Shown one piece after another: positions 2,484 through 46,953 of a stretch of DNA of 46,953 bases (the stretch's first letter is position 1; each line of letters opens with the position of its first letter). The position numbers and the translations under genes were made by a program. Source of the stretch: an uncultured Anaerolineaceae bacterium (GTDB taxonomy: Bacteria; Chloroflexota; Anaerolineae; Anaerolineales; E44-bin32). The notes beneath the pieces are model-generated. The model was not told the origin of the DNA and ran no database searches. It was given only the letters and a program-made list of their open reading frames with translations. Where the stretch lies: positions 6,214-53,166 of the forward strand of contig CAYUWF010000003.1 in NCBI GenBank assembly GCA_964448245.1. Reading direction: 5' to 3'.

Positions 2484-2495
2484 CGTTCGTTCCCC

Positions 2496-4489: not shown

Positions 4490-4511
4490 GCTACGCCCGC
4501 CTCCGGAGGTC

Positions 4512-31335: not shown

Positions 31336-31480
31336 GAGACGCCGAGGGTGTAGACGCGTCGGCGGGCGGATTGTACTCCGAGCCGCGGGCGCACCATCAA
31401 TCCATGATCTCTGTCATATCGGACGACCAAGCGGCCAGCCTGTTGGAATCAGCGGCCTTGTTGTTTAGGCTTGCGGACGC

Positions 31481-31705
31481 CCCACCCCCTACCCCCTCCC
31501 CGATGACCACGGATACCCAGATGTAGGCGCAGACGGGGAGGGGGATAGTAATCTCAAGGGGACGGGGGCGGCGGAGCCGCCCCCGTCCCCTTGAATGACT
31601 CCCTCCCCCTGACTCTCACCCTGGCCTACGGACTCCTGATGATGCAGGGGGCCCTCCGCTGCGCTACGGGGTGCTGCGCGAAGGGCAGGATGGAGGTGGG
31701 AGGGC
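31481..31705 (+). repeat. Composite C-rich/G-rich palindromic repeat, locus A (downstream of the ftsZ block)
   Basis: CCCACCCCCTACCCCCTCCCC (31481-31501), GGGGAGGGGGA (31535-31545), a perfect 18-bp hairpin TCAAGGGGACGGGGGCGG-cggag-CCGCCCCCGTCCCCTTGA (31554-31594), CCCTCCCCC (31601-), GGAGGTGGGAGGG (31693-31705). Same layout as 34591-34775. Confidence 0.6.
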
Positions 31706-31724
31706 CCCAGTGAGGGCTAGATTG

Positions 31725-31919
31725 TCAGAATCCGCGGAGAAGGGCCTCTGCGGCGGCGTGACCCAGAATGAAGGCCGCCACCGCCAGCATGCCGACGGGG
31801 ATGGCGCGCATCGTCCGGGGATGGTGCACCGCGAATCCGGTGACGGCGGCGGCCATGCGCCAAAAGGCGCCTTGCATTCGGGCCCGAGTCGAGCACCATA
31901 CCCTTCGCACGGCTGTCAT
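31725..31919 (-). CDS. Possible small membrane protein (64 aa)
   Basis: The ATG overlaps the upstream stop as ATGA. Hydrophobic C-terminal segment AIPVGMLAVAAFILGHAAA. The first half looks weakly coding. Confidence 0.35.
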   Translation of the reverse strand: MTAVRRVWCSTRARMQGAFWRMAAAVTGFAVHHPRTMRAIPVGMLAVAAFILGHAAAEALLRGF

Positions 31920-32146
31920 CTCGAAGTGCTGATGCGCACGATGCGGCCGCGCTCGTCGGCCACGACGCGCACGATGCGCGTCAGACTCTTGCCGCCGGGG
32001 AGCGACGCCTTGCCCTTGTAGGTGAGCAGGACCAGCGCCCAGTCGTTTCCCCCGGGTTGCGGGCGCACCGTCGGCGCGACGCCGTCCATCTCGGGGAACG
32101 TCCGCAATACTTGGCGTGTGACTTTCTCGATCGTCCCCTTCTCCAT
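31916..32146 (-). CDS. Small hypothetical protein (76 aa) immediately downstream of ftsZ
   Basis: The ATG lies 1 nt after the ftsZ stop. Balanced, protein-like composition (MEKGTIEKVTRQVLRTFPEMDG...RIVRVVADERGRIVRISTSR). Confidence 0.55.
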   Translation of the reverse strand: MEKGTIEKVTRQVLRTFPEMDGVAPTVRPQPGGNDWALVLLTYKGKASLPGGKSLTRIVRVVADERGRIVRISTSR

Positions 32147-32147
32147 C

Positions 32148-33263
32148 TCAGCCTCCGCTACTCCGCAGGAAGCTCCGACGACGCAGGAACGCCGGCAGGT
32201 CGAGGTTCTGCTCGGCCTGCGGCGCGGTGTGCACGACCGAGACGTCTTCGGCTTCGGGCGCCGGTACCGTCTCGACCGCCTGGCCGCCGATGCCGGTGAC
32301 GATCAGGATCGCCTGGGCGCGCCCGGTCATGCCCGGTTCGGTCGTGGCGCCGAAAATCAGGTCGACGTCCGGCGAGAACGACTGACGCAGGTCCTCCACG
32401 GCCTCGCCGATGTCGAACAGAGTGAGATCGTCTCCGCCGGTGAAGTGGACCAAGACGCCGCTGGCCTGTTCCAGGCTGTCGACCTCCAGCAGCGGATGGC
32501 GCAGCGCCTGGCGGATGGCGGTGTGGGCCATGCGATGGCCTTCGCCGATGCCGATCGCCATCAGCGCCCCGCCGCCGTGCTGCATCAGCTCGCGCACGTG
32601 GGCGAAGTCGACATTGATCAGCCCGGCGCGGGTGATCAGCTCCGAGATCCCCTGGACGCCCTGGCGCAGGACGTCGTCCGCCAGACGGAAGGCGACCTCC
32701 AAGCTGAGCTCGCGGGGAACGATCTTCAACAGACGGTCGTTGGGCACGGTGATCAGAGTGTGGGTATGAGGTTGCAGGAGACGGATGCCCTCGGCGGCAT
32801 TGCGCATGCGCCGGGTCATTTCGAAGCCGAAGGGCATCGTGACGATGGCGATGACCACGGCGCCGATCTCGCGGGCGATCTCGGCTGCCACCGCGGCGGC
32901 GCCGGTGCCTGTTCCACCGCCCATCCCGGCGGTGATGAAGACCATGTCGGCGCCGGAGAGGGCGTGCGCCAGCTCGCGGCTGCTTTCCATGGCGGCGGCG
33001 GCGCCGATCTTCGGATCCCCGCCGGCCCCCAGGCCGCGCGTCACGCGCGGGCCGAGCTGAATTCGCACCGGCGCCAGCGACGAAGACAGCGCCTGGGCGT
33101 CAGTGTTGGCGGCGATGAAGTCGACCCCATCCAGCCCGAGCTCGATCATGCGGTTGATGGCGTTCTGTCCGCCGCCGCCGAGGCCGATGATCTTCACCAT
33201 GGCCATTCCTACCGGGGCCGCCGTTGGCGCGGCCATCGTTTGTAGCATCACGTTGTCGCTCAT
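32148..33263 (-). CDS. ftsZ: Cell division GTPase FtsZ
   Basis: IGLGGGGQNAINRM, ANTDAQAL, GAGGDP, FITAGMGGGTGTGAAAV. C-terminal tail LDLPAFLRRR. Preferred ATG at 33263 (GAGGAG RBS); the ORF runs to 33311. Confidence 0.93.
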   Translation of the reverse strand: MSDNVMLQTMAAPTAAPVGMAMVKIIGLGGGGQNAINRMIELGLDGVDFIAANTDAQALSSSLAPVRIQLGPRVTRGLGAGGDPKIGAAAAMESSRELAHALSGADMVFITAGMGGGTGTGAAAVAAEIAREIGAVVIAIVTMPFGFEMTRRMRNAAEGIRLLQPHTHTLITVPNDRLLKIVPRELSLEVAFRLADDVLRQGVQGISELITRAGLINVDFAHVRELMQHGGGALMAIGIGEGHRMAHTAIRQALRHPLLEVDSLEQASGVLVHFTGGDDLTLFDIGEAVEDLRQSFSPDVDLIFGATTEPGMTGRAQAILIVTGIGGQAVETVPAPEAEDVSVVHTAPQAEQNLDLPAFLRRRSFLRSSGG

Positions 33264-33273
33264 GCTGGTCTCC

Positions 33274-34497
33274 TCAGGCCCTGGCGGCCGCGGCGAAAGT
33301 GTCCGGGTCAAGCCATTCGACGCGGCAGCCGTCTCGTTCCAGGTGGGCCGTCATCTGTTCATCGATCGATCCGATCGTGCCAAGGACCGTGACGCGTTCG
33401 GCCAACCTGGCCTCGGCCGGCGAGCAACCGACGGCGCCCGGAGTTCGCAAGGCGACCTGGCCGGCGAGCGCCCACAGCATCGGGTCGGCGCTGCCAGGCG
33501 GCAGGAGAATGTAGTGTGCCAGCGACTTGGGGCGCTGCCTCTTGGCCGCCGCCAGCAGCGCGCCACGCACCATGTCGACATCGCGCTTCGGTTGATCGGG
33601 CGCGCTGTACCACGCGGCGTAGGCTTCAGAAGAGGTGGGCGAGGCGGTCAGCAGGAAGAAGGCGAAGGCCTGCAGCGTGGCCGGGGCGTCCGGCCCCATC
33701 AGCCACCGCGCCACACCGGCGTTCTGTTCGAAAGACGAGGCGTCGTCGGTCGTGGTGCGAGCCGGCAGCGCTCCGCCGCCGATCACGTACACAGGGAGCG
33801 CCTTCCCGATAGCGGTCTGCCCGATGGCGGTGTACCACTCGGGGAGGCGGAGGCCGCGCTGATCTTGAGAACCCTCGGGCGTGTGATACGGCCGACTCTC
33901 GGGCCACGCCTGCGGGCCGCCGGCGCCCCAGTCGAGGGCGCGCCCATAGGTCCAGGTGTACGCGCCGAGGGCCAGGCGATCCAGCAGCGACTCCTGCCCG
34001 CGGCGGGCAAGACCGCGCAACGTCCCCTCGAGGAAGGCCGTGTCCCAGTAGTCGCCTCCGGGCTCGAGCGGCGAGACCATCGGCACCATCCCCAGTTCGG
34101 CCTGGAGATTCCAGAGCGGGAGGGCGCGGTCGATGAAGCGTTCGACGATGCCGACGCGGCTCCACTCGGACGACTCCCAACTGGAGCGCAGGTTGGGCTT
34201 GTCGAAAAGGACCACGTGGCGCACGCCCCAGGCGGCGTAGGCCCGCAGCAGGGGTTCGACGTCGGACGGATTCAGCCGGCCGACCGGCGCCGGCAGGTGG
34301 ACGATCGGCTCGATGCCCTCGTCCAGGAGGCCGCGCAGGAAGTCCTCCGGGACGGAGCGCGAGGTCGAGGCCCGCAGGACGAGCCAGGCGGCGCCGAAGG
34401 AGCGCAGCACCGGGAGCCACGCTGCAAGATCCGCCGGACCGTAGTGGCGGTCGTCAGGGTAGTACTGGAACCCGAGACGGGAAACAGATGGGAGCAT
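33274..34497 (-). CDS. Hypothetical protein (407 aa) directly upstream of ftsZ, possibly TIM-barrel/glycoside-hydrolase-like
   Basis: The ATG at 34497 (MLPSVSRLGFQYYPDD...) avoids the repeat region. Ends 10 nt before the ftsZ start. The fold guess is weak. Confidence 0.6.
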   Translation of the reverse strand: MLPSVSRLGFQYYPDDRHYGPADLAAWLPVLRSFGAAWLVLRASTSRSVPEDFLRGLLDEGIEPIVHLPAPVGRLNPSDVEPLLRAYAAWGVRHVVLFDKPNLRSSWESSEWSRVGIVERFIDRALPLWNLQAELGMVPMVSPLEPGGDYWDTAFLEGTLRGLARRGQESLLDRLALGAYTWTYGRALDWGAGGPQAWPESRPYHTPEGSQDQRGLRLPEWYTAIGQTAIGKALPVYVIGGGALPARTTTDDASSFEQNAGVARWLMGPDAPATLQAFAFFLLTASPTSSEAYAAWYSAPDQPKRDVDMVRGALLAAAKRQRPKSLAHYILLPPGSADPMLWALAGQVALRTPGAVGCSPAEARLAERVTVLGTIGSIDEQMTAHLERDGCRVEWLDPDTFAAAARA

Positions 34498-34590
34498 GGG
34501 TGCCGTAGGGGCTCTTGTTGCAAGGAGCGTGCCGAGAGTGGCCGACCTGGCCCTGGAGCGGGTGGCCTCCATTCGGGCCCTGTCCAGACC

Positions 34591-34775
34591 CCCACCCCTT
34601 ACCCCTCCCCCGGTCCCGGGCTCCATGAATGGTCTGCTGGCTGCCGGGGGAGGGGAGAAATCCTCGAGAAAGGGGGAGAGCGGAGCTCTCCCCTTTCTCG
34701 AAAACCCTCCTCCTCTCCGCTTCTCGACCTGGATGGGTCCAAAGCTGGAGAGGAGAGGGGGTAGGGGAGGACGGG
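34591..34775 (+). repeat. Composite C-rich/G-rich palindromic repeat, locus B (upstream of the ftsZ block)
   Basis: CCCACCCCTTACCCCTCCCC (34591-34610), GGGGGAGGGGAG (34646-34657), hairpin CGAGAAAGGGGGAGAG-cgga-GCTCTCCCCTTTCTCG (34665-34700, one bulge), CCCTCCTCCTCTCC (34706-), GGAGAGGAGAGGGGGTAGGGGAGG (34747-34770). Confidence 0.6.
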
Positions 34776-34798
34776 ATCCGCCTCAGCGATGAAGATCT

Positions 34799-37456
34799 CT
34801 AGCGGGAAACGGCAAGCTTCAGGACCTTTCCGGTCGAATCCAGCGTCAGGCGGGCGAAGTGGACGTGCTTGCGGCCGCCATCGGAGATGTGCTTCGTGAG
34901 CGTCACGACCACGGTCTGCTGAGTCTCGGCCGGTGCGGACTTCATCCCGAGCTGGGAGCAAGGACACAGGTGGTCGCGACCGTCGCAGCCGCAATGTTGC
35001 GAGTGGACCTTGGCGTTGGCATCCGCCAGGCCGGGAAGGTACTGCGCCACGATCGTCTTGACCCGGTCGAGGGTCTCAGGTTGCAGATCGTCCGCCGGGA
35101 TGTTGGCAGCCCCCAGAGCACAGGCGATCTTCATGTCCTTCGGTCGGCGGCTGGGGCGGGCAGGCGCCTTGGGCGCCGTGCCGCGCGGCAGCGGCTGAGC
35201 GACGTAGAGCGGATCGCCGTACAGGACGAAGGAGATTAGCGTCTTCTGGTCCTCGCCGTCGAGGTAACCCTGGCGGCGGTGCATTTCCGCCACCAGGCTG
35301 AGCTTCGCCCGGCGTAGAGCCTCGCCCACGGGCAAGCCCAGATTGAGCTGGTCCCAGAAGTAGCGACCGAGGAGGTCGGCGGCGATCAGCGGCGGGGTGA
35401 CCGACCCGTAAGAGATCTCGGTCGAACCGACGACGGCGTGCGAGCCCGAGGCGAGGAACTTCAGCGCGAGGGCGTCGTCGGCGGTGCGCTTGACGACGTG
35501 CGCGCCGTAGCAGGCTTCGCTGAAGACGACCTTCGGCGCGCGTCCACCGTTGACGATATCCTGCGGCCGCAGGGCGACCGGGAACTCGGTGTCGGCTTCT
35601 TTGTCGCGCAGCGGATCGCGGTGACCGAACCACTCCGGCGCGTCCTCGACGCCGTGCAGGTTGTAGTAGGAGAGAGTGCTCGGCCGGACGGCCTGCGCCG
35701 GAAGAGCCCCGGCCTGGGTCGGCGGCGAGGTCAGCATGGCCTGCGGGTCGCCGATGGCGCGGAAGACGGCCATCGACGCCTTGCGCCAGATGCTGGCCGA
35801 GTAGCCGAGGGCGCGCGGCCGAGAGCCGAAGAAGCGACTGAAGCGGCGGCGTAGCCAGCCCCGCAATCGCTCGACGGGATTCGCCGGCCGATTGGCGAAA
35901 GCGTGGCCGACGGCGGCCTCGCGCAGGATGCGGACGAGCACGTCGGCGTCGTCCTCGCAGGGCAGGCGGCCCACGGGCCACTCGGGCGCCAGGTAGTTCT
36001 CGTCCGAGGTGCTGTAGGGGTTGTCGGAGGCGACGGACTCGTCGTCATCATCGGTGGGGTTGGGCAGGTGGTGGAACGGGATGATGCCGTCGCCGCCGAC
36101 GATCAAGAGCGCCCCGATCATCTCCCCGCGGCGGGCCAGGGCGCGGTCCAGATCCGTCAGCCGCAGCTTCACCTGCCAGGCATTGCCCGGGTCGACGGGC
36201 GTCATGCGGAAAGCCTTGAGGGTCGTCGGGTCGTCGGGGTAGAAGACGTAGGACGACCAACCCGGGCGGCTGCGCATGGCGTCGGCCAGAGCGCGCACCG
36301 CCTCGTCGATGCGCGCGAAGCGGTCCTGGCCGAAGACCTGGGCCAGGCGCGTGCGGCTGCTCAGGACGATGTAGGCCGGCTGGCGCCGGTCGACATCGGT
36401 GGTGGCTTCGGGCGCGCGCAGACGTACCGCCAGGCGATCGAAGTCGGCGCGGATGCGCTCGATCTCCGGAGACTCGCGAGGATCCTTGTCCCCATTGTCT
36501 GGCCCGCGGAAAGACTCCCAGGGCTCGGGCTCGGGAGCCGGCCCGTCCGAGGCCCCCAGGACGGCGGCCGCGACGGCCGGGCCAAGGTCAACCGGCGCTG
36601 CGGAAGGCCGCGTCACCTCGGCACCGATCGCGGTCGCCCCCACGCCCGCCTCGGCGGCGGCGGACCTCGAGGCGGCGCCCGATCCACCCAGCCGGTTGTC
36701 GCCCAGGATGGCGGCGACTTCGGCCGGGACGGGGCGGGAGATGTCGGCGGTGAGCTTCTCACTCCACAGAGACCGGTAGGCGTGGTCGCTTCCGAGCATC
36801 TTCAAGGCGACGCGCCCGGTCGGATCGTTGGACGCGGCGCGGTGGAGATACTCCACGGCGCGGGCATGCTCACCGCGGCGCAGCAGGTCGTCGGCCAGGG
36901 TCAGAGAGAAGGCGACGCACTCGGGCCACCGGTCGTGCGCGGCGCGTGCCGTGGCGACGGCGGCGGCGTTGTCGCCCGAGGCTTGCAGCGAGCGCATCAG
37001 GACCAGGGCGGGGAGGGGGATATCCGGGTCGGACTGCAGCGCTTCCTTGGCCTCTTCGACCGCCGCCTTGGCTTTGCCGGCTTCCAGATGCGCCTGGGCG
37101 ACCATTAGATGTCGGGACCACGAAGGAGCCCCGTCATCGCCGGCCTGCTTGCGCAGCGCGCGGCTGCTGGTGCTGGCCAGGCTGGCGCGCAGCGGATCGC
37201 CGGCGGCCCGGGCGGCTACGGCCAACAGGTCGTAGGCCTCGATAAACTCCGGATCGGCGGCGATGATCTGGCGCAGACGGCGTGAGGCCGAACCGGCATC
37301 GCCCTGCTCGACCTCGACCTGGGCCATCAGGAACTGGACCTCCAGGTCGTTCGGCCAGCGCGCCAGCCAATCGGCGGCCAGCGATCGGGCGTAGTCCAGC
37401 CGGCCGGCGGCGCGGGCCGCCTGCAGCAAACGGAAGAGCGAAGCGCGATCGATCAT
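34799..37456 (-). CDS. TPR domain + clan CD cysteine peptidase (gingipain C25 / CHAT-like) protein, no signal peptide
   Basis: 885 aa. N-terminal ~230 aa are TPR-like. Ala/Gly/Pro linker. C25-like LLIVGGDGIIPFHH...SDNPYS...PEWPVGRLP. Candidate dyad His601 (YYNLHGVEDAPEWFG) and Cys648 (VVFSEACYGA). Ends ...FVLYGDPLY. Cys-rich tail HCGCDGRDHLCPC. The start overlaps the upstream stop as ATGA. Confidence 0.8.
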   Translation of the reverse strand: MIDRASLFRLLQAARAAGRLDYARSLAADWLARWPNDLEVQFLMAQVEVEQGDAGSASRRLRQIIAADPEFIEAYDLLAVAARAAGDPLRASLASTSSRALRKQAGDDGAPSWSRHLMVAQAHLEAGKAKAAVEEAKEALQSDPDIPLPALVLMRSLQASGDNAAAVATARAAHDRWPECVAFSLTLADDLLRRGEHARAVEYLHRAASNDPTGRVALKMLGSDHAYRSLWSEKLTADISRPVPAEVAAILGDNRLGGSGAASRSAAAEAGVGATAIGAEVTRPSAAPVDLGPAVAAAVLGASDGPAPEPEPWESFRGPDNGDKDPRESPEIERIRADFDRLAVRLRAPEATTDVDRRQPAYIVLSSRTRLAQVFGQDRFARIDEAVRALADAMRSRPGWSSYVFYPDDPTTLKAFRMTPVDPGNAWQVKLRLTDLDRALARRGEMIGALLIVGGDGIIPFHHLPNPTDDDDESVASDNPYSTSDENYLAPEWPVGRLPCEDDADVLVRILREAAVGHAFANRPANPVERLRGWLRRRFSRFFGSRPRALGYSASIWRKASMAVFRAIGDPQAMLTSPPTQAGALPAQAVRPSTLSYYNLHGVEDAPEWFGHRDPLRDKEADTEFPVALRPQDIVNGGRAPKVVFSEACYGAHVVKRTADDALALKFLASGSHAVVGSTEISYGSVTPPLIAADLLGRYFWDQLNLGLPVGEALRRAKLSLVAEMHRRQGYLDGEDQKTLISFVLYGDPLYVAQPLPRGTAPKAPARPSRRPKDMKIACALGAANIPADDLQPETLDRVKTIVAQYLPGLADANAKVHSQHCGCDGRDHLCPCSQLGMKSAPAETQQTVVVTLTKHISDGGRKHVHFARLTLDSTGKVLKLAVSR

Positions 37457-40400
37457 GGGTTCACCGCCATCCGGTAGGTTCCGCCATGGACGAACTCCAG
37501 GGCTCGAACGGCCGCCAACTGCTGGAGGGTCGCTGTGTCGGTGGGGTCGAGTTCTGCCGCGCGTTCAAGCATGCGTTCCGCCTCGCCGTAGGCCTTGAGC
37601 GCCTTGAAGACGTGAGCGGCGCGTCGGAAGGCCTCGGGGGCGCGCGGGTGGGCCTCGGCCGAGCGGCAATAGGCATCGAGGGCGTGGTCCAGCTCGCGCC
37701 GGGCCTCGTAGACCTGGCCGAGCTCGAGCGCCAGATCGGCCTCGAGAGGATTGAGTGTTTCAGCCTGCCGCAGCAGGTCGAGGGCGCGGTCAAGTTGACC
37801 CGATTTGCGCTCGACACGAGCCAGGCGGACATGCAGCGCGGCCGAACGCGGCGTCAGCCGCAGGGCCGCTTCCAGGGCCTGGCCGGCGGCCGGGAACCCC
37901 TCCGTCGCCTCGAGCGCCTCGGCCAGGGAGCGCCACGCGCCGTCGTCATCGGGATCCGTTGCCAGGTGGGCCCGCAATTCCTCCGCGGCCAGCCCGGCTC
38001 GACCAATTTCAATGAGCAGGCGAGTGCGAGTCTCCCGCAAGGCCGCGGGATCCTTGGCCACTGCCGCCGCGCGGTCGAGCAGCGCCAGAGCCTGGTCCGG
38101 CTCTCCCTGTTTGGCGGCGGCGGCCGCCAGGCAATGCAGGGCATCCGGCCGGTCGCCACCAAGACGGAGGGCACTCTCGGCCCAACGCCGCGCCTCGCGC
38201 ATCTTGCCGGCCGCCAAGGCCGCCTGTGCCTGGCCGACGAGGTGTTCAGGCTCGGTCGGCGCGATGGAGGCGGCGCGCTCGAAGAGAGATTCCGCCTGGG
38301 TGACGTCTCCGCCGGCGAGGGCCAGCTCGCCTGCTTCGTGCCACACCTGCGCCTCTGATGGCAGCAGCGGAAGGAGGCGCTCGTACGCATGCAGCGATTC
38401 GCTCAGATGGCCGGCCTGGCGCAGGGCGCGAGCATAAGCCAGCCTCCAAGCGGTGTTCTCGGGATCGAGTTCGACCGCCGCCTGAAGATGGGGGAGGGCC
38501 GAGTCGAGGTCGGTCTGTGCCAGGTACAAATCGGCCAGGGCGGCGTGCCAAGCAGGCTCGTCCGACCATTGGGCCAGGGCGGAATTCAAAGCAGCGATGG
38601 CCGAGTCGGAGTAGCCCTGGGCCAGGTGAGCGCGGGCCAATAGAGACTGCGCGGCGGGCCGCAACCCGGCATCCTCGGCGGCGTCGACGAACGCCTGGCG
38701 CGCCAGCGATGGGTTGCCTCCATGAAGGTGGGCTACGCCGGCAAGGAGAGCCTGCCAGCTGGCACCGAGATCGTCGGGTTGGCACTGGCGCAGGACGTCC
38801 AGCGCGTCGAACGGGCGCCGGCAGCGGAGATGGGCGATAGCCAACGCTTCGAGCGGCCCGTTGACCGCCGGGTCGTCCGTCGAGGTCGATTGGAGCCCCT
38901 GCATGGCTTCTTCATCCTCGGGCGATCGGGTGAGCCGCAGACGGTAAGCGATGGAGCGCCCGGCCTCGGCCGCGCCGAGCGGGCCGGCGAGGCAGGTCTC
39001 GAGCCAGGTGATGAGCGAGTTGGAAGGGACATCCGGCCGAGGGGCATGCCGGCGCGCAAGCGCCGCCTCGCCGAAGAGCCAGCGGGCTTCCAGGACCCGC
39101 ACGATGGTTTCCGCCAGAGCAGTCTCGCCGCGGGCATCGGTCGTCGAGAGGATCGGCGCCAGGGCCGTGAGGGCATCGTTCCAGTTGGCGAGCCGCAGCT
39201 CGGCGCGCGCCAGGGCCAACCGGTCGTCCGGCGTCGGCGAGTCCGGGCGCCGGGCCTCGACGATGGCCAGCTTGGCGGCGGCCAGATCGCCGATCGACAC
39301 GGCCGCTTCGGCGTAGAGAGCCCACGCGGCGGCGGAGATGGTGGGCAGGGAGGTCGCCTTGGTCAAGACTTCGAAAGCGCGGGCAGGCTGCTTGAGCCGC
39401 AGCCAGGCCTCGCCCAGTGCCGCAAGCGTGGGGCTGGTGGGGGCCTCGGCGGCGGCACGCGTCAGTAGGTCGACGGCCTCTTGCGCCGAGCCGTGGCGCA
39501 GCGTAGCCAGGCCGGCTTCGGCCAGCAAAGCTGCGTCGGCAGGGTGATGCCGCAGGCCTTCGGCGAACTGGTTGAGACCCGCCTCGAACTCCTCGTTGTC
39601 GACCAGCGCCCTTGCCAGGGAGCGCTGGATGCGGACATCATTGGGAGTCAGCTCGAGCGTCTTGTGCCAGGCGCCGATCGATTCAGACTGACGCCCGGCG
39701 GACCACAGCGCCGCCGCGCGGCGCGCCTGAATCTCGGCGTCCCCCGGGACGAGGCCGGCGACGTGGCTTAACGCGTCGATCGAGGTGGGGAGGTCCCCTG
39801 CGCCCTCGGCGACGTCGGCGAGTTCGATCCAAACCGAAGGTTCTTCCGGCTGCGCGGAGGCGACACCCTTGAGCAGGGTAGCGGCGCGCGTTGAGAGGCC
39901 GAGCCCGACCAGGACGTGGGCCGCCCGCCGGCGGAGAGCGAGATCACCCGGACCGGCCAGAGCTTTTTCGACGGCGCCCGCCGCCGCCGTGGATTCTCCC
40001 GCATGCAGGGAGGCTTCGGCTGCGTCGAGCCATAATCCTGCGTCCCCCTCGGCCTGCGCGGTGGCGCTGTGATAGGCCGCGGCGGCCCGCTTCCAGTCAC
40101 CTGTCTGCTGAGCAACCGCCGCCAGGACGTGGAGACCGGCGCGGTTGGCCGGATCCGCGGTGAGAAGACTTTCGGCCGTCTGGCGGGCCTCATCGATCAG
40201 CGACACCGCGAGGTAGGCTCCTGCGAGCGGTTCAAGGAACTTCGGATCCTGCCCATCGGCGGCGCGCAGGGCCTCGAAGGTGCGAATGGCGGAGAGCGTG
40301 TCGCCTGCCTGGAGCAGGCACTGTGCCCTGTGAAGCGCGGCGAACTTTGCCTGAGGCGCGTCGCGCGGCGCGGCTTGGAGGTACTCCGCGTAGCACTGAG

Positions 40401-42531
40401 CCGCTCGTTCGGCGTCTCCGGAGTCTTCGTAGGCGCGCGCCAGCCAGAAGGGAAGAGCCAGGTCGTGGGAGCCCAGCACCCGCGCGCGCAGCAATCGTCC
40501 TGCGGCGGTCCTGGCGCGCGCAGGGTCGGGCGGGACGTCGCCCATGAGCTCGAGGCGTCCGGAGATCAGCCAGGCCTCGGCCGGGGCGTTCTGCGGCAGG
40601 TGGGCGAAGAGGGTGCGGGCGGCATCGAATTCGCCCGTCGCCTCGTAGGCGGAGGCCAGGGCCATGCGCGTTTCCTGGTTCCCCGGCAGCCGACGATGTG
40701 CGTTGCGCAGGGGCTCCACGGCCTCCGCCGGACGTCCCAGGGCGAGCAACGCCGCACCAGTTTCAAGATTGGCCTGCGAATCGCGGGCATCGATCTCCAA
40801 GGCCTGGCGGGCGGATTCGAGGGCTTCGCTCGGGCGGCTTTGTACGCGGAGCCAGTGCGCGAGCGCGGCGTAGATCGGCGCGGCGCCGGGCGCCATCTGT
40901 GAGGCGCGCCTGAGCGTCTCGCCCGAGGCCTCGTCGTTTCCGAGGTCTTGATGGAGGCGGGACAGGCCGAGCCAAAGCGCCGGCTCGGATGGGTTTTCCT
41001 GTGCGGCGACCTCAAGCTGCGAGATTCCCTCGGCGCCGCGGCCTTCGGCAACCAGCACCTTTGCCCCCAGGAGGATCCGATCGAGCGACGGCACGCCGGA
41101 TGGGGATTCGAGGAGGAGAGCCTGGGCCTGTTGCGTATCGCCGAGGGCGATGGCGCAGTCGACGACTTTCTTCCACGTCGCCGGACGCGGGTCACCCGCA
41201 AGTGCCTTCAACGCGGCCAGCGCTTCCGCCGGTCGGCCAAGCCGCTGCAGCGCCTGGGCCTCGACCTCGATCGCCGAGGCGCTGGTGCTGTCGAGGGCCA
41301 GGGCCAATCGGGCCTGTGCCAGGGCGCCGTGATCGTCCCCACACTCCGCAAGCGCTTGCGCGTAGGCACAACGAGTTGACACATCCGAGGGGACCTCGGC
41401 CAGGGCGGCGCGAAACACGTCGAGCGCCAGGCCGGGCTCTCCGCACGCCACGAGGCCGAATGCGAGGGAAGGGCTGGCCTTCGGATCTCCGACCTCGAGC
41501 GCGTTGAGCGCGGACTCGATCAGGATGCCCCGGCCTTTTTCCACGGCGCCGCCTTGGAGGTATGCCGTTCCGGCGGCGAAGCCGAGAGAAGGCGTGGTCG
41601 AGGTGGGGGGCAACAAGGAGAGCGCCGCGGCGGCGTCGCCTTTCTCCACAAAGGACAGCGCAACGTTCGCCAGGCGCGCATCCGAAGGGCCGAATTGCAG
41701 GGCCTGTTGGCGTGCTTCAAGCGCGCTGACGATGTCTCCATCCTGCGCGGCGACGATGGCCAAACCGTCGGCAAGGGCTGCGAGCTCCCCTCGGCGCGTT
41801 TCCCACGCGTCCTGCAAGCGCCTGCGCAGAGTGCCCGGGGTAGGCCGACTTACAGGCGGGACGTCGGCCTTGGCGGAATCAGGCCGTCCCGCGGCGGCGG
41901 CGACGGCCGCAGCGAAGTTTGCCTCGCCGGCTTCGACCAGGCGCAGGAGAACAACATCCAAATGGGCCGCGGCGGCGGCAGCCAGGGCGCAGGCCGCTTC
42001 GTCGTCGGTGCCGTTGGCGCGCAGCGCGGCCGCCAGGGCGGCCAATGGCCGCCGGTCGCTCGACTCTGCAAGGCTGGCGGCAAGACGCTGCCGGTCGACG
42101 ACGGCCTCCCAGGCGACGGCCAGTGGCGAGCGCCAATCGACGGGGACCGCGCTTATCATTCGCTCGACGCCCTGCGCGCCCTCGTCTCGCTCGGTGCGGA
42201 GGACTTCACCTGCCAAGATCAGGACGTCGTCCGCCGAGAGGTCGTCACCGGCCGACTGGCCCGAGAGCAACGCCTCAAGTCGGGCTGCCAGCGCAGGGGG
42301 CCACACGGAGGGCAGAGAAGTCAGGCTGGTGTGGCCGGTGGCGGCGACAAGCGCGGTGGCGGCAGGGGAGTCGCCTGACCCGGCCGAACGGACAAGAGCG
42401 GCGTGCACCGGCTCTTCCTTGAGCCAGTCGAGTGCGCCCGGAACATGGAGCAGCCGCCGGAGAATGCCGGAGGTATTCTCCGCACCGATCGCGTCCTGGA
42501 GGCGGGCGAAGGCTTCGTCGAGGGTCGCCAT
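37453..42531 (-). CDS. Giant tetratricopeptide-repeat protein (1692 aa)
   Basis: A single uninterrupted ORF. Dozens of 34-residue Ala/Leu-rich units (e.g. AWLISGRLELMGD, ALAECGDDHGALAQARLALALD, GQLDRALDLLRQAETLNP). No catalytic motif seen. Confidence 0.85.
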   Translation of the reverse strand: MATLDEAFARLQDAIGAENTSGILRRLLHVPGALDWLKEEPVHAALVRSAGSGDSPAATALVAATGHTSLTSLPSVWPPALAARLEALLSGQSAGDDLSADDVLILAGEVLRTERDEGAQGVERMISAVPVDWRSPLAVAWEAVVDRQRLAASLAESSDRRPLAALAAALRANGTDDEAACALAAAAAAHLDVVLLRLVEAGEANFAAAVAAAAGRPDSAKADVPPVSRPTPGTLRRRLQDAWETRRGELAALADGLAIVAAQDGDIVSALEARQQALQFGPSDARLANVALSFVEKGDAAAALSLLPPTSTTPSLGFAAGTAYLQGGAVEKGRGILIESALNALEVGDPKASPSLAFGLVACGEPGLALDVFRAALAEVPSDVSTRCAYAQALAECGDDHGALAQARLALALDSTSASAIEVEAQALQRLGRPAEALAALKALAGDPRPATWKKVVDCAIALGDTQQAQALLLESPSGVPSLDRILLGAKVLVAEGRGAEGISQLEVAAQENPSEPALWLGLSRLHQDLGNDEASGETLRRASQMAPGAAPIYAALAHWLRVQSRPSEALESARQALEIDARDSQANLETGAALLALGRPAEAVEPLRNAHRRLPGNQETRMALASAYEATGEFDAARTLFAHLPQNAPAEAWLISGRLELMGDVPPDPARARTAAGRLLRARVLGSHDLALPFWLARAYEDSGDAERAAQCYAEYLQAAPRDAPQAKFAALHRAQCLLQAGDTLSAIRTFEALRAADGQDPKFLEPLAGAYLAVSLIDEARQTAESLLTADPANRAGLHVLAAVAQQTGDWKRAAAAYHSATAQAEGDAGLWLDAAEASLHAGESTAAAGAVEKALAGPGDLALRRRAAHVLVGLGLSTRAATLLKGVASAQPEEPSVWIELADVAEGAGDLPTSIDALSHVAGLVPGDAEIQARRAAALWSAGRQSESIGAWHKTLELTPNDVRIQRSLARALVDNEEFEAGLNQFAEGLRHHPADAALLAEAGLATLRHGSAQEAVDLLTRAAAEAPTSPTLAALGEAWLRLKQPARAFEVLTKATSLPTISAAAWALYAEAAVSIGDLAAAKLAIVEARRPDSPTPDDRLALARAELRLANWNDALTALAPILSTTDARGETALAETIVRVLEARWLFGEAALARRHAPRPDVPSNSLITWLETCLAGPLGAAEAGRSIAYRLRLTRSPEDEEAMQGLQSTSTDDPAVNGPLEALAIAHLRCRRPFDALDVLRQCQPDDLGASWQALLAGVAHLHGGNPSLARQAFVDAAEDAGLRPAAQSLLARAHLAQGYSDSAIAALNSALAQWSDEPAWHAALADLYLAQTDLDSALPHLQAAVELDPENTAWRLAYARALRQAGHLSESLHAYERLLPLLPSEAQVWHEAGELALAGGDVTQAESLFERAASIAPTEPEHLVGQAQAALAAGKMREARRWAESALRLGGDRPDALHCLAAAAAKQGEPDQALALLDRAAAVAKDPAALRETRTRLLIEIGRAGLAAEELRAHLATDPDDDGAWRSLAEALEATEGFPAAGQALEAALRLTPRSAALHVRLARVERKSGQLDRALDLLRQAETLNPLEADLALELGQVYEARRELDHALDAYCRSAEAHPRAPEAFRRAAHVFKALKAYGEAERMLERAAELDPTDTATLQQLAAVRALEFVHGGTYRMAVNP

Positions 42532-42543
42532 GAGACCGTCCTG

Positions 42544-42879
42544 CTAGACCGTCGCCCACTCGACCTGCGTCAGGATCCAGTACGAGGCCCCGATCATCAT
42601 CAGGCCGAGCGTGATCAGGAAGACGCCCGTGCCGTTCGTGGTGCGGACGAGGTCGTTGAGCGAAGCCACCAGCGCTGAGGCGCTGCTGACCAGGCCGGTG
42701 ACCTCTTCCGCCAGCCCCTTCTGAGCGAGGCGGGCGGTGTGGGCCGCCAGCATCTTGACCTCGGCCGAGTTGCCCCGCCCGATGAGGACGAAGGCCCCGA
42801 GCAGGATGCACATGCAGCCCAGGATGAACACGGCCACGGAGATCACAATCTGAAAATCGCTGAGGTTCAGGGGAATCAT
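42544..42879 (-). CDS. Small 2-TM membrane protein (111 aa), first gene of the TPR/peptidase operon
   Basis: ATG at 42879 with GGGAGG upstream. TM1 FQIVISVAVFILGCMCILLGAFVLI. Amphipathic loop. TM2 GVFLITLGLMMIGASYWIL. 12 nt upstream of the TPR gene. Confidence 0.7.
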   Translation of the reverse strand: MIPLNLSDFQIVISVAVFILGCMCILLGAFVLIGRGNSAEVKMLAAHTARLAQKGLAEEVTGLVSSASALVASLNDLVRTTNGTGVFLITLGLMMIGASYWILTQVEWATV

Positions 42880-42899
42880 CTTTGCCTCCCGGTCGAGCG

Positions 42900-43271
42900 T
42901 CAGGAGGCGGTGATGCAAGGCCCGTGCCAGGCCGGGCTTGCGGCGAGGTTACGGGCCGAGATCCGTGTGGCCCCGACGTCGCCGTAGGGCGAGGTCTCGT
43001 CCCAGAGGTGGTGCGTCATCGTGCCGTCGATGCCCTGTGCCACGCGGCGGCCATCGGCATTGTAGGAATACACGACGGTCGTGCCGTCGGGCAGGCCGAC
43101 GCCGCCCAGGCGATCCCGGGCGTCCCATGAGTATGCTGTGACGTCGGCTCCGTCGGTAGCCTGGGTGAGGTTCCCGCGCGGATCGTAGGCGAAGGATGTC
43201 CCGCCTGCCGTGAGCAGCTGATCGAGCTCGTTGTAGGCGTAGCTCGTGGTCGCGCCGTCGACGGTCTCCAT
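42900..43271 (-). pseudogene. Truncated Rhs/YD-repeat remnant (terminal orphan fragment, no toxin domain)
   Basis: METVDGATTSYAYNELDQLL...AYDPRGNLTQ...YSWDARDRL...YSYNADGRRV...HLWDETSPYGDV parallels the other two Rhs copies. Homology stops near 42978 and the frame then reads non-Rhs sequence to a stop at 42900. Confidence 0.65.
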
Positions 43272-43358
43272 GGCACCGGCGGTGATCGAGCCCCGATTGG
43301 AGGGCTTCAGGTTTCCGCTCTGCTTAGTCGATGTGAGCTGGGTCCCAGAGTCAGGAAG

Positions 43359-43739
43359 CTAGTGGCGGGCCACGAATACGCGTATCTCTTCCAGTGTGGT
43401 TGCTGGATTGAGCTCCAGGGTCTCATACGAGTTTGCTGGAAAGAGGAACAGCCTGTGCCTATCCGGGATCACTTTCCGATGCCACAGGAAGAAGTCCTCC
43501 ACGGGCATGTCCAGCCAGACTACTTGGGCGTTGGGTTGAAGCCCTCCATATACTCTTCCCCCATCGGGGACTGCGAGACCCCAAGCCAGAATAGCGGTAG
43601 GCTTCGGGCTGTAGAACTCGATGTCGGGCCAGTCCTTTGTCAGCAGGTCACGATACCTAGATGGGTCGATAACGAGGTCGCTTTTTGCAGTCTGCCAGTC
43701 TCTGGGACTGTACGGAGTCACGAAGTATGGCCTGGTCAA
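43359..43739 (-). CDS. Candidate immunity protein for the orphan PD-(D/E)xK toxin cassette (126 aa)
   Basis: Starts 21 nt downstream of the toxin stop, on the same strand, in lower-GC sequence. Assigned by position only; no family recognised. Confidence 0.55.
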   Translation of the reverse strand: MTRPYFVTPYSPRDWQTAKSDLVIDPSRYRDLLTKDWPDIEFYSPKPTAILAWGLAVPDGGRVYGGLQPNAQVVWLDMPVEDFFLWHRKVIPDRHRLFLFPANSYETLELNPATTLEEIRVFVARH

Positions 43740-43760
43740 TTCAAGTTCCTCCCTTGATTC

Positions 43761-45335
43761 TCAAGGCACGAGTTGGATCACGCCCATTGACCCAGGGGTG
43801 AAGCCTGCCTGTACAAGCATCTGCTCAAAGAATAGAGCTGCCTCGGCCGTGGTTGTGCGAACGATCAGCCCGGCCGGTTGGGCCCCGGGAATGCCACTCG
43901 ACGTGATAAGGGCTAGTCGATACCTGCTCAGCTCGTCGATCTGCTGGGCAACGAGAAAGGGCGGGGGATTGTCTAGCCTGTACATAGTGTTGTCCCCCGC
44001 ATGTTTCGCTTCAACCAGGCGGCAAGAGGCCGGAGCAATACCGTCGGCATCGATGGTGTCTGCAGGGATCGGAATGGTCTTCGCAAATATGCCATACAGG
44101 CCGTTTGCACGAGCCACCCTTGCTCATACTCGTAGTTCGGGTTGCCGGGACGGTAAGATGCACGTACGTTTGGAAGGCTCTCCCACCATGCCGCAAACGC
44201 CACTGGGTCACAGCTGTCAGTCTCGTTCCTGTCGCGCTGATCCGGTCTGGGCTCTCCAGGCAGAAGTTGCGTTAGTGTAAGCATAAGGATTGCCTCCGCG
44301 ACTCTCCTGATCTTTCGGAATACCTCTCCCTTGCGGTTCAGCTCATCCAGGAGATCGCGGATTTCGTCAAGGGGATCTCTGCCGTCAGGTGATGGTGACG
44401 GCAATGGGGGGTATGAGGGGGCAAGATCTGGAAGGACGCCGACTTGGGCCATCATGAGGAGCACATAACTTGCAGCGAGGGCTCCGCCGGCCAAGATGGC
44501 CAAGTCAGTGAGCCCCCTAGCCGCCTGGAGTCCTACCATCGCTGTTGTCAGGGCATAGCTCTTGAAGCTCTGGGCTCCCAGTGGATCAAATTGGTTGACC
44601 GGATTGTCTGTCGCGTACACATAGCGGTTAACCTCGACCGGATTGAAGGCCTGCACCTCCATCGGATCCCGCGAGAGGAACCTACCGAGCGCCGGGTCGT
44701 AATATCGGGCCCGCAGACTATACAGTCCTGTCGGGGCGTCGAACTGCTGGCCGGTGTAGAGATAGGGATTCGTCGTGGATCCCGTGCTGGCGAAGAGGCC
44801 TCCGAAAGCGGTGTAGTCGTAGGTGTCGGTGACTACGCCGCCGCTATTGGTGAGCGCGCGGGCACTGCCCTGGGCGTCACCGAGGTAGTAGCTGGTCGAA
44901 CCCGCTCGCCTCTGCGAGAGGAGCTCGCCTCCGCCGAGCACGTAGCTTGCGAGCGGTGCGCCGCCCGCGTCGGTTTCGAGCACAACGTCGCCGTAGAGCG
45001 AGGCCTCGTCCCAGAGGTAGTTCGTATCGACTCCGTCCACAGCCTGGCGCACGCGTCGACCGTCGGCGTCGTAGGTGTAACCCAGCGCGGTTCCATCAGG
45101 AAGGGTGGCGCCACTCAGTCGATCCAAGGCATCCCAGGAGTAAGCAGTGACGTCGCCGCTGGTTGAGGTCTGGGTGAGGTTCCCGCGCGGATCGTAGGCG
45201 AGGCTCGAACTGCCGGAGCTGAGCAGCTGGTCCAATTCATTGTAGGCGTAGGTGGTCATTGCGCCGTCGACGGTCATGCTGAGCCGCTTGCCGACGGGGT
45301 CGTAGGGAAGGCAAGGTCCGTTCCATCCTGCAGGT
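43761..45335 (-). pseudogene. Orphan Rhs C-terminal cassette: YD repeats + DPxGL core end + frameshifted restriction-endonuclease-fold (PD-(D/E)xK) toxin domain
   Basis: YD repeats (YDPVGKRLSMTVDG...YTYDADGRRV...), LYTGQQFD, RARYYDPALGRFLSRDP, NRYVYATDNPVNQFDPLGA. The toxin part switches frame near 44115-44122 from ORF 43973..45277 to ORF 43761..44117, which carries IDADG...CRLVEAKH. No credible start or RBS: YD homology continues upstream of the internal Met, with a further frameshift and a stop. Confidence 0.7.
44931..45118 (-). repeat. Rhs recombination tract, orphan-cassette copy (identical to 46766-46953 except one A/G)
   Basis: Base-by-base comparison at offset 1835: 182 consecutive identical nt (44931-45112), one mismatch (45113 A vs 46948 G), then a match to the window edge. 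Confidence 0.85.
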
Positions 45336-45377
45336 GGACCATCCCGAGGGGACCTACCAGCACATTGCCGCGGCTAC

Positions 45378-45671
45378 CTATGACCGCTTTCGAGGTACGC
45401 TGATCGCAGCGATAATCGCCGCCTCGGAAGGTATATCGCTCTTCCAGTCAACTTTCATCAGGGAATCTCGAGCCGCGTCTTCTAGAGCTACCACAACCCG
45501 CGTGAGGGCGGCATTTCCGACCCGGTAGGACACCTCTCGGAGCGTGGCAAAAGTGACCCGCAGATTCTCGAGAGCCTCCATGTCCTGCCCCGTCCGCGAG
45601 CCAATCAGATGGTCTCTTAGACCGAAGAGAATCCCGGCGAAATCAGTCTCTGTTTCTCCTTGTTCGGTCAT
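45378..45671 (-). CDS. Candidate immunity protein for the main Rhs toxin (97 aa)
   Basis: Starts 16 nt after the Rhs stop with GGACGGAG upstream. Helical, acidic, lower-GC sequence. Assigned by position only. Confidence 0.55.
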   Translation of the reverse strand: MTEQGETETDFAGILFGLRDHLIGSRTGQDMEALENLRVTFATLREVSYRVGNAALTRVVVALEDAARDSLMKVDWKSDIPSEAAIIAAISVPRKRS

Positions 45672-45687
45672 GATCTCCGTCCTCTAC

Positions 45688-46953
45688 TTACGGCTCGCGG
45701 AGCATGTAGATCGCGAGCAGCTGAGGCGAAACGCTCGTCGTGTTGAGATTCGCCAAGTCGGCGGCGTGCCACTCGTCCCAATAGCCTCTATCTGAGTGGT
45801 ACACGGTGAGATGGCCAGGCGGGTAGGTCGCCCCGGCTCCCGTTGAGGGATCGATGAAGACCCCGCTAGTCCAGAGCTTAATCACTGGTTGGTTCGAATT
45901 TGGCCTAACAACGTAGCCGTTTGCAACCAAGATGCTCGTTCGGAATCGGATGAACTTCCCTGATGGGGGTAGCTCCGAAAACGATAACCCAGTTTCCCCG
46001 TCTTGAATCCGGTGGAGGCTGAGGTCCTTGATGCGGCTTCCACTCCGGTATATCAGATCCGGCGTCGTCGTGGGGTCGATCGGGATCGGAGGGAAGGGCG
46101 TTACCTCGACCTCTGGTTCAGGTCCTGGAAGAGGCTTGGTTCGACGGAGTGCATCCAGGGCCTCGCGCAGAGCTTCTGCTTGCCCGGCACGCTCAAAAGC
46201 TCGCTCAATCGCGTCGCGCCACACTTCTGGCAGCGCCGGTTCCTCACCCTGTTGGACGTCAGGGACGGCACCGGGGATTCCAATCACGAGGAGGCTGACA
46301 AGCACCCACGCTACAGGGCGGGCGACCACTCCGACAACCGACTTCAACCCAGCGAGGGCCCGAAGAACGCCAGCAATGGGCGAGGAGTATTCAGCTGTGG
46401 CGCTCCAGAGCCCCGACGGGTCCGCCATGCGTACCGGATCGTTCGCCGCATAGACATATCGGTTGGCCTCGACCGGATTGAATAGCTCCACTTCCACCGG
46501 ATCCCTCAAGAGGAACCGTCCAAAGCCCGGGTCGTAGTACCTCGCCCTCAGGCTGTACAGCTCCGTAAGCGGATCGAACTGCTGGCCCGTGTAGAGGTAG
46601 GCGTTGGCTGTCGTGCCACTGTGGGCGAGGAGGTCGCCAAAGGCGGCGTAGTCGTAGGTGTCTGTAATCGCTCCCGCGCCGTCGGTCAGCGCCCGCACGC
46701 TGCCCATGGCGTCGCTGAGGTAGTAGCTGGTGGCGCCGGCGCGGGTCTGCGCGAGCAGCTCCGGCCCGCCGAGCACGTAGCTTGCGAGCGGTGCGCCGCC
46801 CGCGTCGGTTTCGAGCACAACGTCGCCGTAGAGCGAGGCCTCGTCCCAGAGGTAGTTCGTATCGACTCCGTCCACAGCCTGGCGCACGCGTCGACCGTCG
46901 GCGTCGTAGGTGTAACCCAGCGCGGTTCCATCAGGAAGGGTGGCGCCGCTCAG
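45688..46953 (-). CDS. Rhs-family polymorphic toxin, 3' part (open at the window edge), with an unclassified C-terminal toxin domain
   Basis: The frame is open to 46953 (LSGATLPDGTALGYTYDADGRRVRQAVDG...). LYTGQQFD, RARYYDPGFGRFLLRDP, NRYVYAANDPVRMADPSGL, then ~240 aa of non-Rhs sequence ending at 45688. Confidence 0.85.
   Translation of the reverse strand: MSGATLPDGTALGYTYDADGRRVRQAVDGVDTNYLWDEASLYGDVVLETDAGGAPLASYVLGGPELLAQTRAGATSYYLSDAMGSVRALTDGAGAITDTYDYAAFGDLLAHSGTTANAYLYTGQQFDPLTELYSLRARYYDPGFGRFLLRDPVEVELFNPVEANRYVYAANDPVRMADPSGLWSATAEYSSPIAGVLRALAGLKSVVGVVARPVAWVLVSLLVIGIPGAVPDVQQGEEPALPEVWRDAIERAFERAGQAEALREALDALRRTKPLPGPEPEVEVTPFPPIPIDPTTTPDLIYRSGSRIKDLSLHRIQDGETGLSFSELPPSGKFIRFRTSILVANGYVVRPNSNQPVIKLWTSGVFIDPSTGAGATYPPGHLTVYHSDRGYWDEWHAADLANLNTTSVSPQLLAIYMLREP
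46766..46953 (-). repeat. Rhs recombination tract, main-gene copy
   Basis: See 44931-45118. Identity collapses to roughly 60-65% immediately 3' (below 46766 / 44931). Confidence 0.85.

Follow-up and report, generated by a model that had tools for sequence, protein, structure and literature searches.

A predicted cytoplasmic C25 peptidase encoded with a giant tetratricopeptide repeat protein in a sigma-54/ftsZ gene cluster of Anaerolineae

Introduction

Csx29 is the tetratricopeptide repeat (TPR)-CHAT protease of type III-E CRISPR ('Craspase'), and separase of eukaryotes, which belongs to family C50 of clan CD, is composed of a large helical-repeat region followed by a caspase-like protease domain. 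FlgR and CtcC are sigma-54 activators that do not contain a DNA-binding domain. We know of no described ftsZ gene that is dependent on sigma-54. Here we present a gene cluster in which a TPR-containing peptidase of family C25, the family of the gingipains, is encoded together with a giant TPR protein and a small membrane protein, behind a sigma-54 promoter and ahead of a block of genes that includes ftsZ. The cluster is located in a stretch of 46,953 nucleotides (nt), the window, from an uncultured Anaerolineaceae bacterium (assembly GCA_964448245.1, contig CAYUWF010000003.1), the genome of which has a guanine plus cytosine (GC) content of 68–70%. Coordinates are window positions throughout, and all cluster genes are on the minus strand.

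The best explanation of the sequence comparisons is that the Anaerolineae operon, from the first promoter (P1) to the last gene (p247), is an eight-gene cluster transcribed from sigma-54 promoters. Its peptidase represents a class-wide, uncharacterised cytoplasmic C25 subfamily inside a sigma-54/ftsZ cluster that had not been described.

Results

Overall organisation of the cluster

In the window, the order of the elements is P1, the gene for a protein with two transmembrane segments (2-TM), the TPR gene, the TPR-C25 gene, a second promoter (P2), p450, ftsZ, p76, p64 and p247. Gene 1 (42544–42879), an open reading frame (ORF) with its ATG at 42879 and the sequence GGGAGG ahead of the start, encodes the 2-TM protein of 111 amino acids (aa). 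After a gap of 12 nt it is followed by gene 2 (37453–42531), an ORF for a protein of 1692 aa that matches many TPR families. Genes 2 and 3 overlap in an ATGA (37453–37456), and the TPR and C25 genes of locus L001 from a relative also overlap by 4 nt. Gene 3 (34799–37456) encodes the 885-aa TPR and Peptidase_C25 protein, identified by Pfam (PF01364), an AlphaFold2 model and Foldseek. The GC content of third codon positions is 0.80–0.91 in all three frames of the trio, from which we conclude that all three are coding. The common strand and the tight linkage, by gap and overlap, are as given in a preliminary description of this DNA. That description ended the unit at 34799; five further conserved genes, including ftsZ, continue on the same strand. 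The ftsZ block, overlooked at that time, changes the likely biology of the operon.

The C25 peptidase

Two stretches of the 885-aa protein, residues 642–750 included, match PF01364; the score is 41.1 bits (cut-off 23; E = 1.8e-10). In a word-filtered search, 2732 homologues were scored out of 8000 candidates. The 120 best come from Anaerolineales and Chloroflexota metagenome-assembled genomes (MAGs), share 60% identity or more in their peptidase half and are, with few exceptions, full-length proteins of about 880 aa; homologues carry a precomputed PF01364 annotation, and NCBI gives some of them the name 'C25 family cysteine peptidase'. In an exhaustive HMMER search, the peptidase matched 1437 clusters at 50% identity, with an E-value below 1e-30 for 435; most clusters are 850–1000 aa long, with the domain at the carboxy-terminus.

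The AlphaFold2 model, built on an alignment of 136 sequences, has a predicted local distance difference test score (pLDDT) of 88.7 and a predicted TM-score of 0.72; an earlier alignment of 25 close homologues gave a pLDDT of 62 for the catalytic half. The chain begins with a TPR domain (residues 1–250, 36707–37456; TPR_14, TPR_19 and TPR_16) formed by 13 helices with pLDDT above 90. This is followed by a disordered, variable linker rich in alanine and proline (residues 255–328, 36473–36694), with a pLDDT below 50 for residues 257–328. The linker varies in length, yet Pro310, Pro312, Glu314, Phe316, Gly318 and Pro319 are nearly invariant and belong to a motif PEPWExFxGPD (about residues 310–322), a possible site of docking or autoprocessing. 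Arginine usually, though not invariably, precedes the glycine of this motif. The C25 catalytic domain comprises residues 355–765 (35162–36394) and contains His601 (codon 35654–35656) and Cys649 (codon 35510–35512). At the distal end, an alpha/beta domain is located (residues 780–885, 34802–35119; pLDDT 75–93), which carries a Cys/His-rich insert (HCGCDGRDHLCPC). This domain does not match any Pfam family, a type IX secretion system (T9SS) C-terminal domain included, and it is a paralogue of p76, the protein encoded after ftsZ. A PepSY-like nature of the domain and of p76 was also considered and dropped, the guess having come from a motif with no family match behind it.

The catalytic domain contains the motifs GGDGIIPF, SDNPYS and VGRLP; their GG, PF, SD/PY and G-R positions are invariant in 25 homologues, while Ile458, Ser482 and Leu498 vary. 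His601-Gly602 and Cys649-x-Gly651, which contain the predicted catalytic dyad, are invariant in each of three alignments (25, 20 and 136 sequences), with identities as low as 33%. When Ala648 is included, the segments Ala648-Cys649-x-Gly651 and His601-Gly602 are invariant or nearly so in the 136-sequence alignment, where many further invariant polar residues surround the pair. Such invariance suggests that catalysis is under selection. The dyad had been proposed as His601 and Cys648: the histidine stands, but the cysteine is residue 649 and residue 648 is an alanine; with this correction, the pair is found in every one of the 136 homologues.

In the model, His601 follows the strand of residues 595–599 and Cys649 that of residues 643–646, which is the clan-CD arrangement. 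A Foldseek comparison with the PDB places gingipain K at the top twice (4rbm, E = 6.7e-9; 6i9a, E = 4.1e-8; target-normalised TM-score 0.51 for each), while the remaining matches listed among the top 50 are all TPR or TPR-containing proteins. The above-threshold Pfam match and the leading rank of gingipain K agree with the earlier view of a TPR module joined to a clan-CD core of C25 type. The label 'CHAT-like' has to be abandoned, because neither CHAT nor Peptidase_C50 appeared in the Pfam family screen of the protein at E ≤ 0.1. By sequence model, dyad and predicted fold, the protein is assigned to family C25 of clan CD, with predicted peptidase activity. The proposed equivalence of the dyad to His444 and Cys477 of Kgp is based on motif context, invariance and the model; it leans on motif context and model because sequence profiles do not reach the gingipain chains in the PDB.

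The same distance would be in keeping with a C25 domain that is a non-catalytic pseudo-peptidase, acting as a structural or binding part of a TPR scaffold complex. Dead enzyme domains occur in many large scaffold proteins, activity is in our case predicted from sequence and model, and the profiles stop short of the characterised gingipains. The strict conservation of His601-Gly602, of Cys649-x-Gly651 and of many polar residues over 136 sequences argues against a dead enzyme, which we consider improbable.

No hydrophobic amino-terminal segment, signal peptide, twin-arginine translocation (Tat) motif or TM segment is found in the C25 protein, as had been noted before for the signal peptide, and a cytoplasmic location is predicted. 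Scans of the trio against Pfam and NCBIfam contain no T9SS C-terminal-domain family, and a gingipain-type prodomain is not evident. An exported or surface-located protease or sortase at the cell envelope, resembling gingipains or PorU, would fit the secreted gingipain that is the best fold match, and the cluster does encode a membrane protein and a protein resembling the LCP (LytR-CpsA-Psr) family. Apart from the missing export and T9SS signals, evidence against this comes from the amino-terminus, which is a confidently folded TPR helix, and from the partner TPR protein, which has no export signals either. An exported enzyme is thus very improbable.

The membrane protein and the TPR giant

The product of gene 1 contains two TM-like segments, as judged by hydropathy, and a basic, amphipathic loop of about 50 residues, which is its best-conserved part (53 loci). 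The loop is probably cytoplasmic, because of the positive-inside rule. The protein does not match any entry of Pfam, NCBIfam or PADLOC. The product of gene 2 consists of TPRs along most of its length (TPR_19, E = 2.7e-57, plus other TPR families) and, by hydropathy, contains no true TM segment and no signal peptide. Its best NCBIfam match is PrsT, which is below the cut-off, as are the matches to other named TPR proteins, and PADLOC gives weak generic TPR-type matches only. An analogy with PrsK, PrsR and PrsT of PEP-CTERM systems was rejected as generic TPR and AAA+ similarity, all matches being below their cut-offs and the activator encoded near the trio in relatives being most similar to AtoC/NtrC.

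Conservation of the trio

A scan of GTDB with one genome per species revealed a relative in at least 524 species, in which the trio is conserved at 37–90% identity. The 80 loci listed are labelled Anaerolineae, Anaerolineales or Chloroflexota, save for one 'uncultured bacterium' and several 'uncultured Chloroflexia' MAGs. Loci L071, L079 and L081 carry the labels Leptolinea or Anaerolinea sp. In 67 of 67 loci, the TPR gene is the immediate upstream neighbour of the C25 gene, and the 2-TM gene is upstream in 50 of 50, so the three genes do co-occur in relatives, a point that the preliminary description had left to be checked. An activator gene is located upstream of the trio in 38 of 47 loci, usually in the company of rpoN and a PAS histidine kinase gene. 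In two long contigs with orthologues that are 62–64% identical, the 5' part contains rpoN, the PAS histidine kinase gene and the gene for an activator with REC and sigma-54 AAA+ domains. These are followed, in both, by genes for a 111-aa protein, a TPR protein of about 1715 aa, TPR-C25, a protein of about 427 aa, ftsZ, and proteins of 75 and 67 aa. Both contigs continue at the 3' end with genes for a protein of about 250 aa, an amino-acid ABC transporter and plsX. The contigs of the distant homologues P0266 and P0254 are too short for an analysis of context. No cas or other defence genes are present in the fetched neighbourhoods. As judged from these comparisons, the trio is a core operon of Anaerolineae, conserved vertically rather than carried as an island gene set. 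Literature searches found no description of the trio or of the cluster, in line with the earlier statement that no system of this three-gene composition had been described, and no sigma-54-dependent ftsZ.

Promoters and activator

P1 (TGGCACGGGCCTTGCA, 42914–42929, minus strand) is a perfect -24/-12 element that starts 50 nt upstream of the 2-TM start codon. The strict sigma-54 pattern has two matches in the window, where 0.03 are expected. The P1 element is found 44–56 nt upstream of the orthologous gene in 40 of 52 loci and sits inside the sole upstream stretch that the window has in common with locus L036, its closest relative among the fetched loci. P2 (CGGCACGCTCCTTGCA, 34519–34534, minus strand) is of sigma-54 type and starts 37 nt upstream of the ATG at 34497, which encodes Met44 of p450. 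A relaxed pattern occurs 15–110 nt upstream of the p450 orthologue in 94 of 112 loci, most often at 37 nt; the controls give 3 of 111 before the C25 gene, 1 of 55 before the TPR gene and none of 93 before p76. In all fetched loci together (1.98 Mb), the pattern is present 172 times on the operon strand and four times on the other, and 151 of the 172 sites are just upstream of the 2-TM gene, p450 or ftsZ. A scan of the operon strand with a simple sigma-70 consensus, from 30400 to 43400, shows no promoter-like site.

The NtrC-type activator encoded beside rpoN is a protein of 391 aa with REC and AAA+ domains (3271–4446 of L001; 372–1547 of L036). It probably has no helix-turn-helix (HTH) domain, because its alignment with AtoC/NtrC stops at the end of the AAA+ domain. 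The trio may depend on rpoN and on this activator and, going by its promoters and neighbours, defines a compact sigma-54 regulon with a predicted HTH-less activator. Gene order, gene overlap and promoter together show the trio to be a fixed, sigma-54-promoted, translationally coupled gene set.

Sigma-54 sites are also present upstream of rpoN itself in L025, L029 and L030. The other strict match in the window (TGGCATCGATTTTGCT, 12367–12382, minus strand) is located about 260 nt upstream of an ORF with a 4HBT thioesterase domain (11274–12104).

The ftsZ block

The peptidase gene is followed by a spacer of 301 nt, compared with about 10–75 nt in relatives. It contains a long, perfect hairpin with a stem of about 25 base pairs (34660–34712, minus strand), the surroundings of which (34640–34730, 91 nt) fold with -52.3 kcal/mol (z = -3.5; none of 200 shuffled sequences is as stable). 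The hairpin may act as a terminator or attenuator, or it may represent a repeat element. Gene 4, p450 (33274–34497), encodes a soluble protein of about 407 aa, its start probably being Met44 of the 450-aa ORF because the homologues begin there. The protein has no match in Pfam, NCBIfam, PADLOC or the PDB; many invariant Trp, Gly and Asp residues suggest that it is an enzyme. It occupies the slot before ftsZ where ftsA usually sits. Divergent FtsA and known enzymes were considered as identities for p450 and rejected, there being no family match and a lone signal from one marginal CWB2-like repeat (E = 0.018).

Gene 5, ftsZ (32148–33263, 371 aa), starts 10 nt after the p450 stop codon. Its product matches TIGR00065 with 367 bits against a cut-off of 295, as well as the Tubulin and FtsZ_C families of Pfam, and carries the conserved C-terminal peptide DLPAFLRRR; by these models it is a genuine FtsZ equivalog. 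Gene 6, p76 (31916–32146, 76 aa), starts 1 nt after the ftsZ stop codon. Family alignments of p76 and of the C-terminal domain of the peptidase align over the whole length of p76 in hhalign (probability 95.7%, E = 9e-9), and p76 also matches the peptidase tail in a pairwise BLASTP comparison (E = 3e-4). Both proteins end in -SR, while the Cys/His-rich insert is present in the peptidase copy only. On the basis of these alignments, p76 is a paralogue of the peptidase C-terminal domain. Gene 7, p64 (31725–31919), encodes a small hydrophobic protein of 64 aa; its start overlaps the p76 stop codon (ATGA) and L001 contains a 67-aa homologue (E = 1e-8). Gene 8, p247 (30592–31335), encodes a single-pass membrane protein with an amino-terminal TM segment and occupies the same position in relatives. 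Its LCP-like match is weak and partial, below the Pfam and NCBIfam cut-offs. No ftsA, ftsQ, mur or mraZ/W genes are found in the scanned parts of the window.

A metagenome scan with p450 as the seed gave 80 loci. Wherever the contig extends far enough, p450 is followed by ftsZ, and p76 comes after ftsZ at almost every locus of sufficient length; among GTDB loci with a complete ftsZ, p76 is detected after it in 42 of 44. On the other side of p450, 73 of the 80 metagenome loci have a C25 match, most of the other seven starting too near the contig end. Viewed from the trio, ftsZ is within the locus in 27 of 39 well-flanked GTDB loci, downstream in 22 and upstream in five. In L054 the activator gene is followed by a sigma-54 site, p450, ftsZ, p76, p82, p257, 2-TM, TPR and C25, where p82 and p257 encode membrane proteins, with gaps of 4–45 nt among the first six genes and no strong sigma-54 site before the 2-TM gene. 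L060 has the same layout. This order is a circular permutation of that of the window, which argues that selection keeps the eight genes together. Two loci (L157 and L160) have no C25 gene ahead of p450, yet they have sigma-54 sites before p450 and ftsZ; in L082, p450 is not detected and the site is directly upstream of ftsZ. Equivalents of p64 and p247 are present in both gene orders (L001, L002 and L054). Further away in the window, a fusion of SPFH/Band_7 and HTH_17 domains is encoded on the plus strand (24509–25537), at the same relative position as in L001 and L002.

The Rhs cassettes upstream of the trio

On its upstream side, the trio is adjoined by three Rhs C-terminal cassettes (42975–46887, minus strand). 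Two contain PxxxxDPxGL cores followed by variable tails, while the third ends after '...LWDETSPYGDV'. The Rhs DNA has a GC content of 0.60, compared with 0.70 for the operon. The Rhs-like ORF has its stop at 42900, 20 nt ahead of the ATG of gene 1, which is where the preliminary description had ended its 'Rhs remnant'; only the first part of this ORF is Rhs, however, and its last 24 or so codons are native intergenic DNA that is in frame and holds the sigma-54 promoter. When about 4 kb of upstream window DNA is compared with loci L001 to L083, no Rhs-derived match is obtained. The sole upstream matches are about 45 nt in L036, starting about 59 nt before the start codon, and one short tblastx match in L062. 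In L036, the space from the activator gene to gene 1 is occupied, on the opposite strand, by genes for a HAMP protein and for a Ser/Thr kinase (1569–4447 of that locus). The different cargo at the same gap indicates a lineage-specific variable spot, and the region between activator gene and P1 seems to be a local hotspot of insertion. L036 has two copies of the promoter segment, at 4122–4166 and 4484–4521. The Rhs cassettes are an unrelated low-GC insertion at the upstream site of the trio.

The trio had been suggested to belong to a conflict island together with the Rhs genes, or to be read through from it, as a sensor-effector conflict or defence module of a polymorphic-toxin locus. The three cassettes next door invite this idea, and some defence systems do contain TPR-linked clan-CD proteases, Csx29 for example. 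It fails because the trio is present in at least 524 species, at the identities given above and in a fixed housekeeping context, with no Rhs homology in the fetched loci. In addition, the GC content of the operon is like that of the host, the trio has its own conserved sigma-54 promoter, other cargo is found at the same intergenic site in L036, no PADLOC defence model covers the 2-TM protein, the peptidase, p450 or p76, and the CHAT family is not detected. We therefore regard a conflict module as extremely improbable. The adjacency to Rhs is an insertion artefact and not evidence for a conflict system, and a tempting mis-annotation is corrected.

Discussion

We propose that the trio forms a cytoplasmic protease module, switched by sigma-54 and tethered to the membrane, and that this module cleaves a target in division or septation. 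Taken as a whole, this statement seems to us evenly poised between right and wrong, while its structural and regulatory part is well supported. In the proposed mechanism, the PAS kinase and the HTH-less activator would switch on both blocks of genes through sigma-54. The basic cytoplasmic loop of the 2-TM protein would tether the TPR scaffold at the inner face of the membrane, and the scaffold would use TPR-peptide contacts to recruit and position the peptidase and perhaps also to take up the C-terminal peptide of FtsZ or the -SR tails. The peptidase would then cleave a cytoplasmic division or septation component (FtsZ, p450, p76 or a partner), and this cleavage would adjust how septa form or how filaments fragment in these bacteria, which are multicellular and filamentous.

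Several observations weigh against this proposal. In 12 of the 39 well-flanked loci, ftsZ is not found within 10 kb of the trio, and the tie of the trio to rpoN, kinase and activator is more constant than that to ftsZ. The division target is the weakest step, because these loci, a third of those well-flanked, keep the trio with its regulators and away from ftsZ. In the window itself, the genes for activator, kinase and rpoN are not visible, since their expected place is taken by the Rhs insertion, which extends as far as the window edge. In the distant loci L057, L061, L065, L073 and L080, P1 was not detected, and P2 of the window is one base off TGGCAC-N5-TTGCA, with C for T at the first position. 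PDB searches with the single sequence, a full-length profile and a catalytic-domain profile returned TPR proteins or noise and no gingipain chain. Finally, a physical association of the three trio proteins is putative and deduced from their fixed synteny and translational coupling.

Given the weaker tie to ftsZ, the trio could serve another sigma-54-controlled process, such as envelope or nutrient stress or the quality control of proteins at the membrane, its nearness to ftsZ then reflecting shared regulation or inherited order. The counts of 38 of 47 loci for the regulators and 27 of 39 for ftsZ would fit this, as would the TPR and C25 domains, which bear no division-specific signature. Where ftsZ is not nearby, the downstream side of the trio contains only assorted housekeeping genes and no further conserved partner. 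A separate programme does not account well for two blocks that are contiguous in two gene orders, with a sigma-54 site heading whichever comes first, for the one promoter type common to both, or for p76 beside ftsZ being a paralogue of the peptidase C-terminal domain. We judge this alternative possible, though somewhat unlikely.

A more specific form of the division proposal is a separase-like switch. Here, a sigma-54-controlled ftsZ and a tethered, TPR-scaffolded clan-CD protease cleaving FtsZ, p450 or p76 would time and place septa or filament breaks, and free p76, as a regulator or as a substrate, would be a competitor or a mimic of the protease's C-terminal domain. This is a speculation that we put forward as rather unlikely in all its details.

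Cell division of Chloroflexota is almost unstudied, and a live-imaging preprint states that no such observations had been made for Chloroflexota before. The cluster provides concrete candidates: an ftsZ behind a sigma-54 promoter and outside the division and cell wall (dcw) cluster, the proteins p450, p76 and p64 of no known family, and a cytoplasmic gingipain-type protease with a scaffold and an anchor. If the protease acts on the divisome, this would be a new mode of bacterial division control and, if true, a cytoplasmic C25 peptidase would for the first time be given a physiological role. Even without a role at the divisome, the peptidases represent a large uncharacterised family, with the 1437 clusters and at least 524 species reported above.

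When the locus is compared with known systems, the peptidase is most similar to the gingipains Kgp and RgpB and to other members of MEROPS family C25, including the T9SS sortase PorU. It has in common with them the Pfam C25 match, a predicted fold like that of gingipain K and the order of His and Cys, with H-G and A-C following strands. In sequence, it is too distant from the gingipain chains of the PDB for profile searches. Unlike the gingipains, the 885-aa protein has no signal peptide, evident prodomain or T9SS domain and is predicted to be cytoplasmic; it contains an amino-terminal TPR domain and a novel C-terminal domain, and its gene is accompanied by those of a TPR giant and of a membrane protein, behind a sigma-54 promoter, in monoderm-type Chloroflexota.

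Csx29 and other CHAT effectors resemble the 885-aa protein in combining an amino-terminal TPR region with a clan-CD cysteine protease in the cytoplasm, which a large partner presumably keeps latent; the difference is that our protein does not match CHAT and is encoded next to sigma-54 regulators and ftsZ instead of cas genes. The likeness to separase is architectural only: helical repeats are followed by a clan-CD protease, the protein is predicted to be cytoplasmic and there is, in this case, a genomic tie to cell division. In contrast to separase, there is no Peptidase_C50 match, the fold match is to C25 and no sign of a role in chromosome cohesion is seen.

The regulatory part is reminiscent of the regulons of FlgR in Helicobacter and Campylobacter and of CtcC in Chlamydia, with -24/-12 promoters and a 391-aa, HTH-less activator encoded beside a kinase and rpoN, although the targets are a protease module and an ftsZ block instead of flagellar or developmental late genes. 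When compared with the dcw/ftsQAZ cluster, the slot before ftsZ is taken by the gene for a 407-aa protein without a match in Pfam, to FtsA or any other family, while the arrangement of a genuine ftsZ flanked by tightly linked small genes is the same in both.

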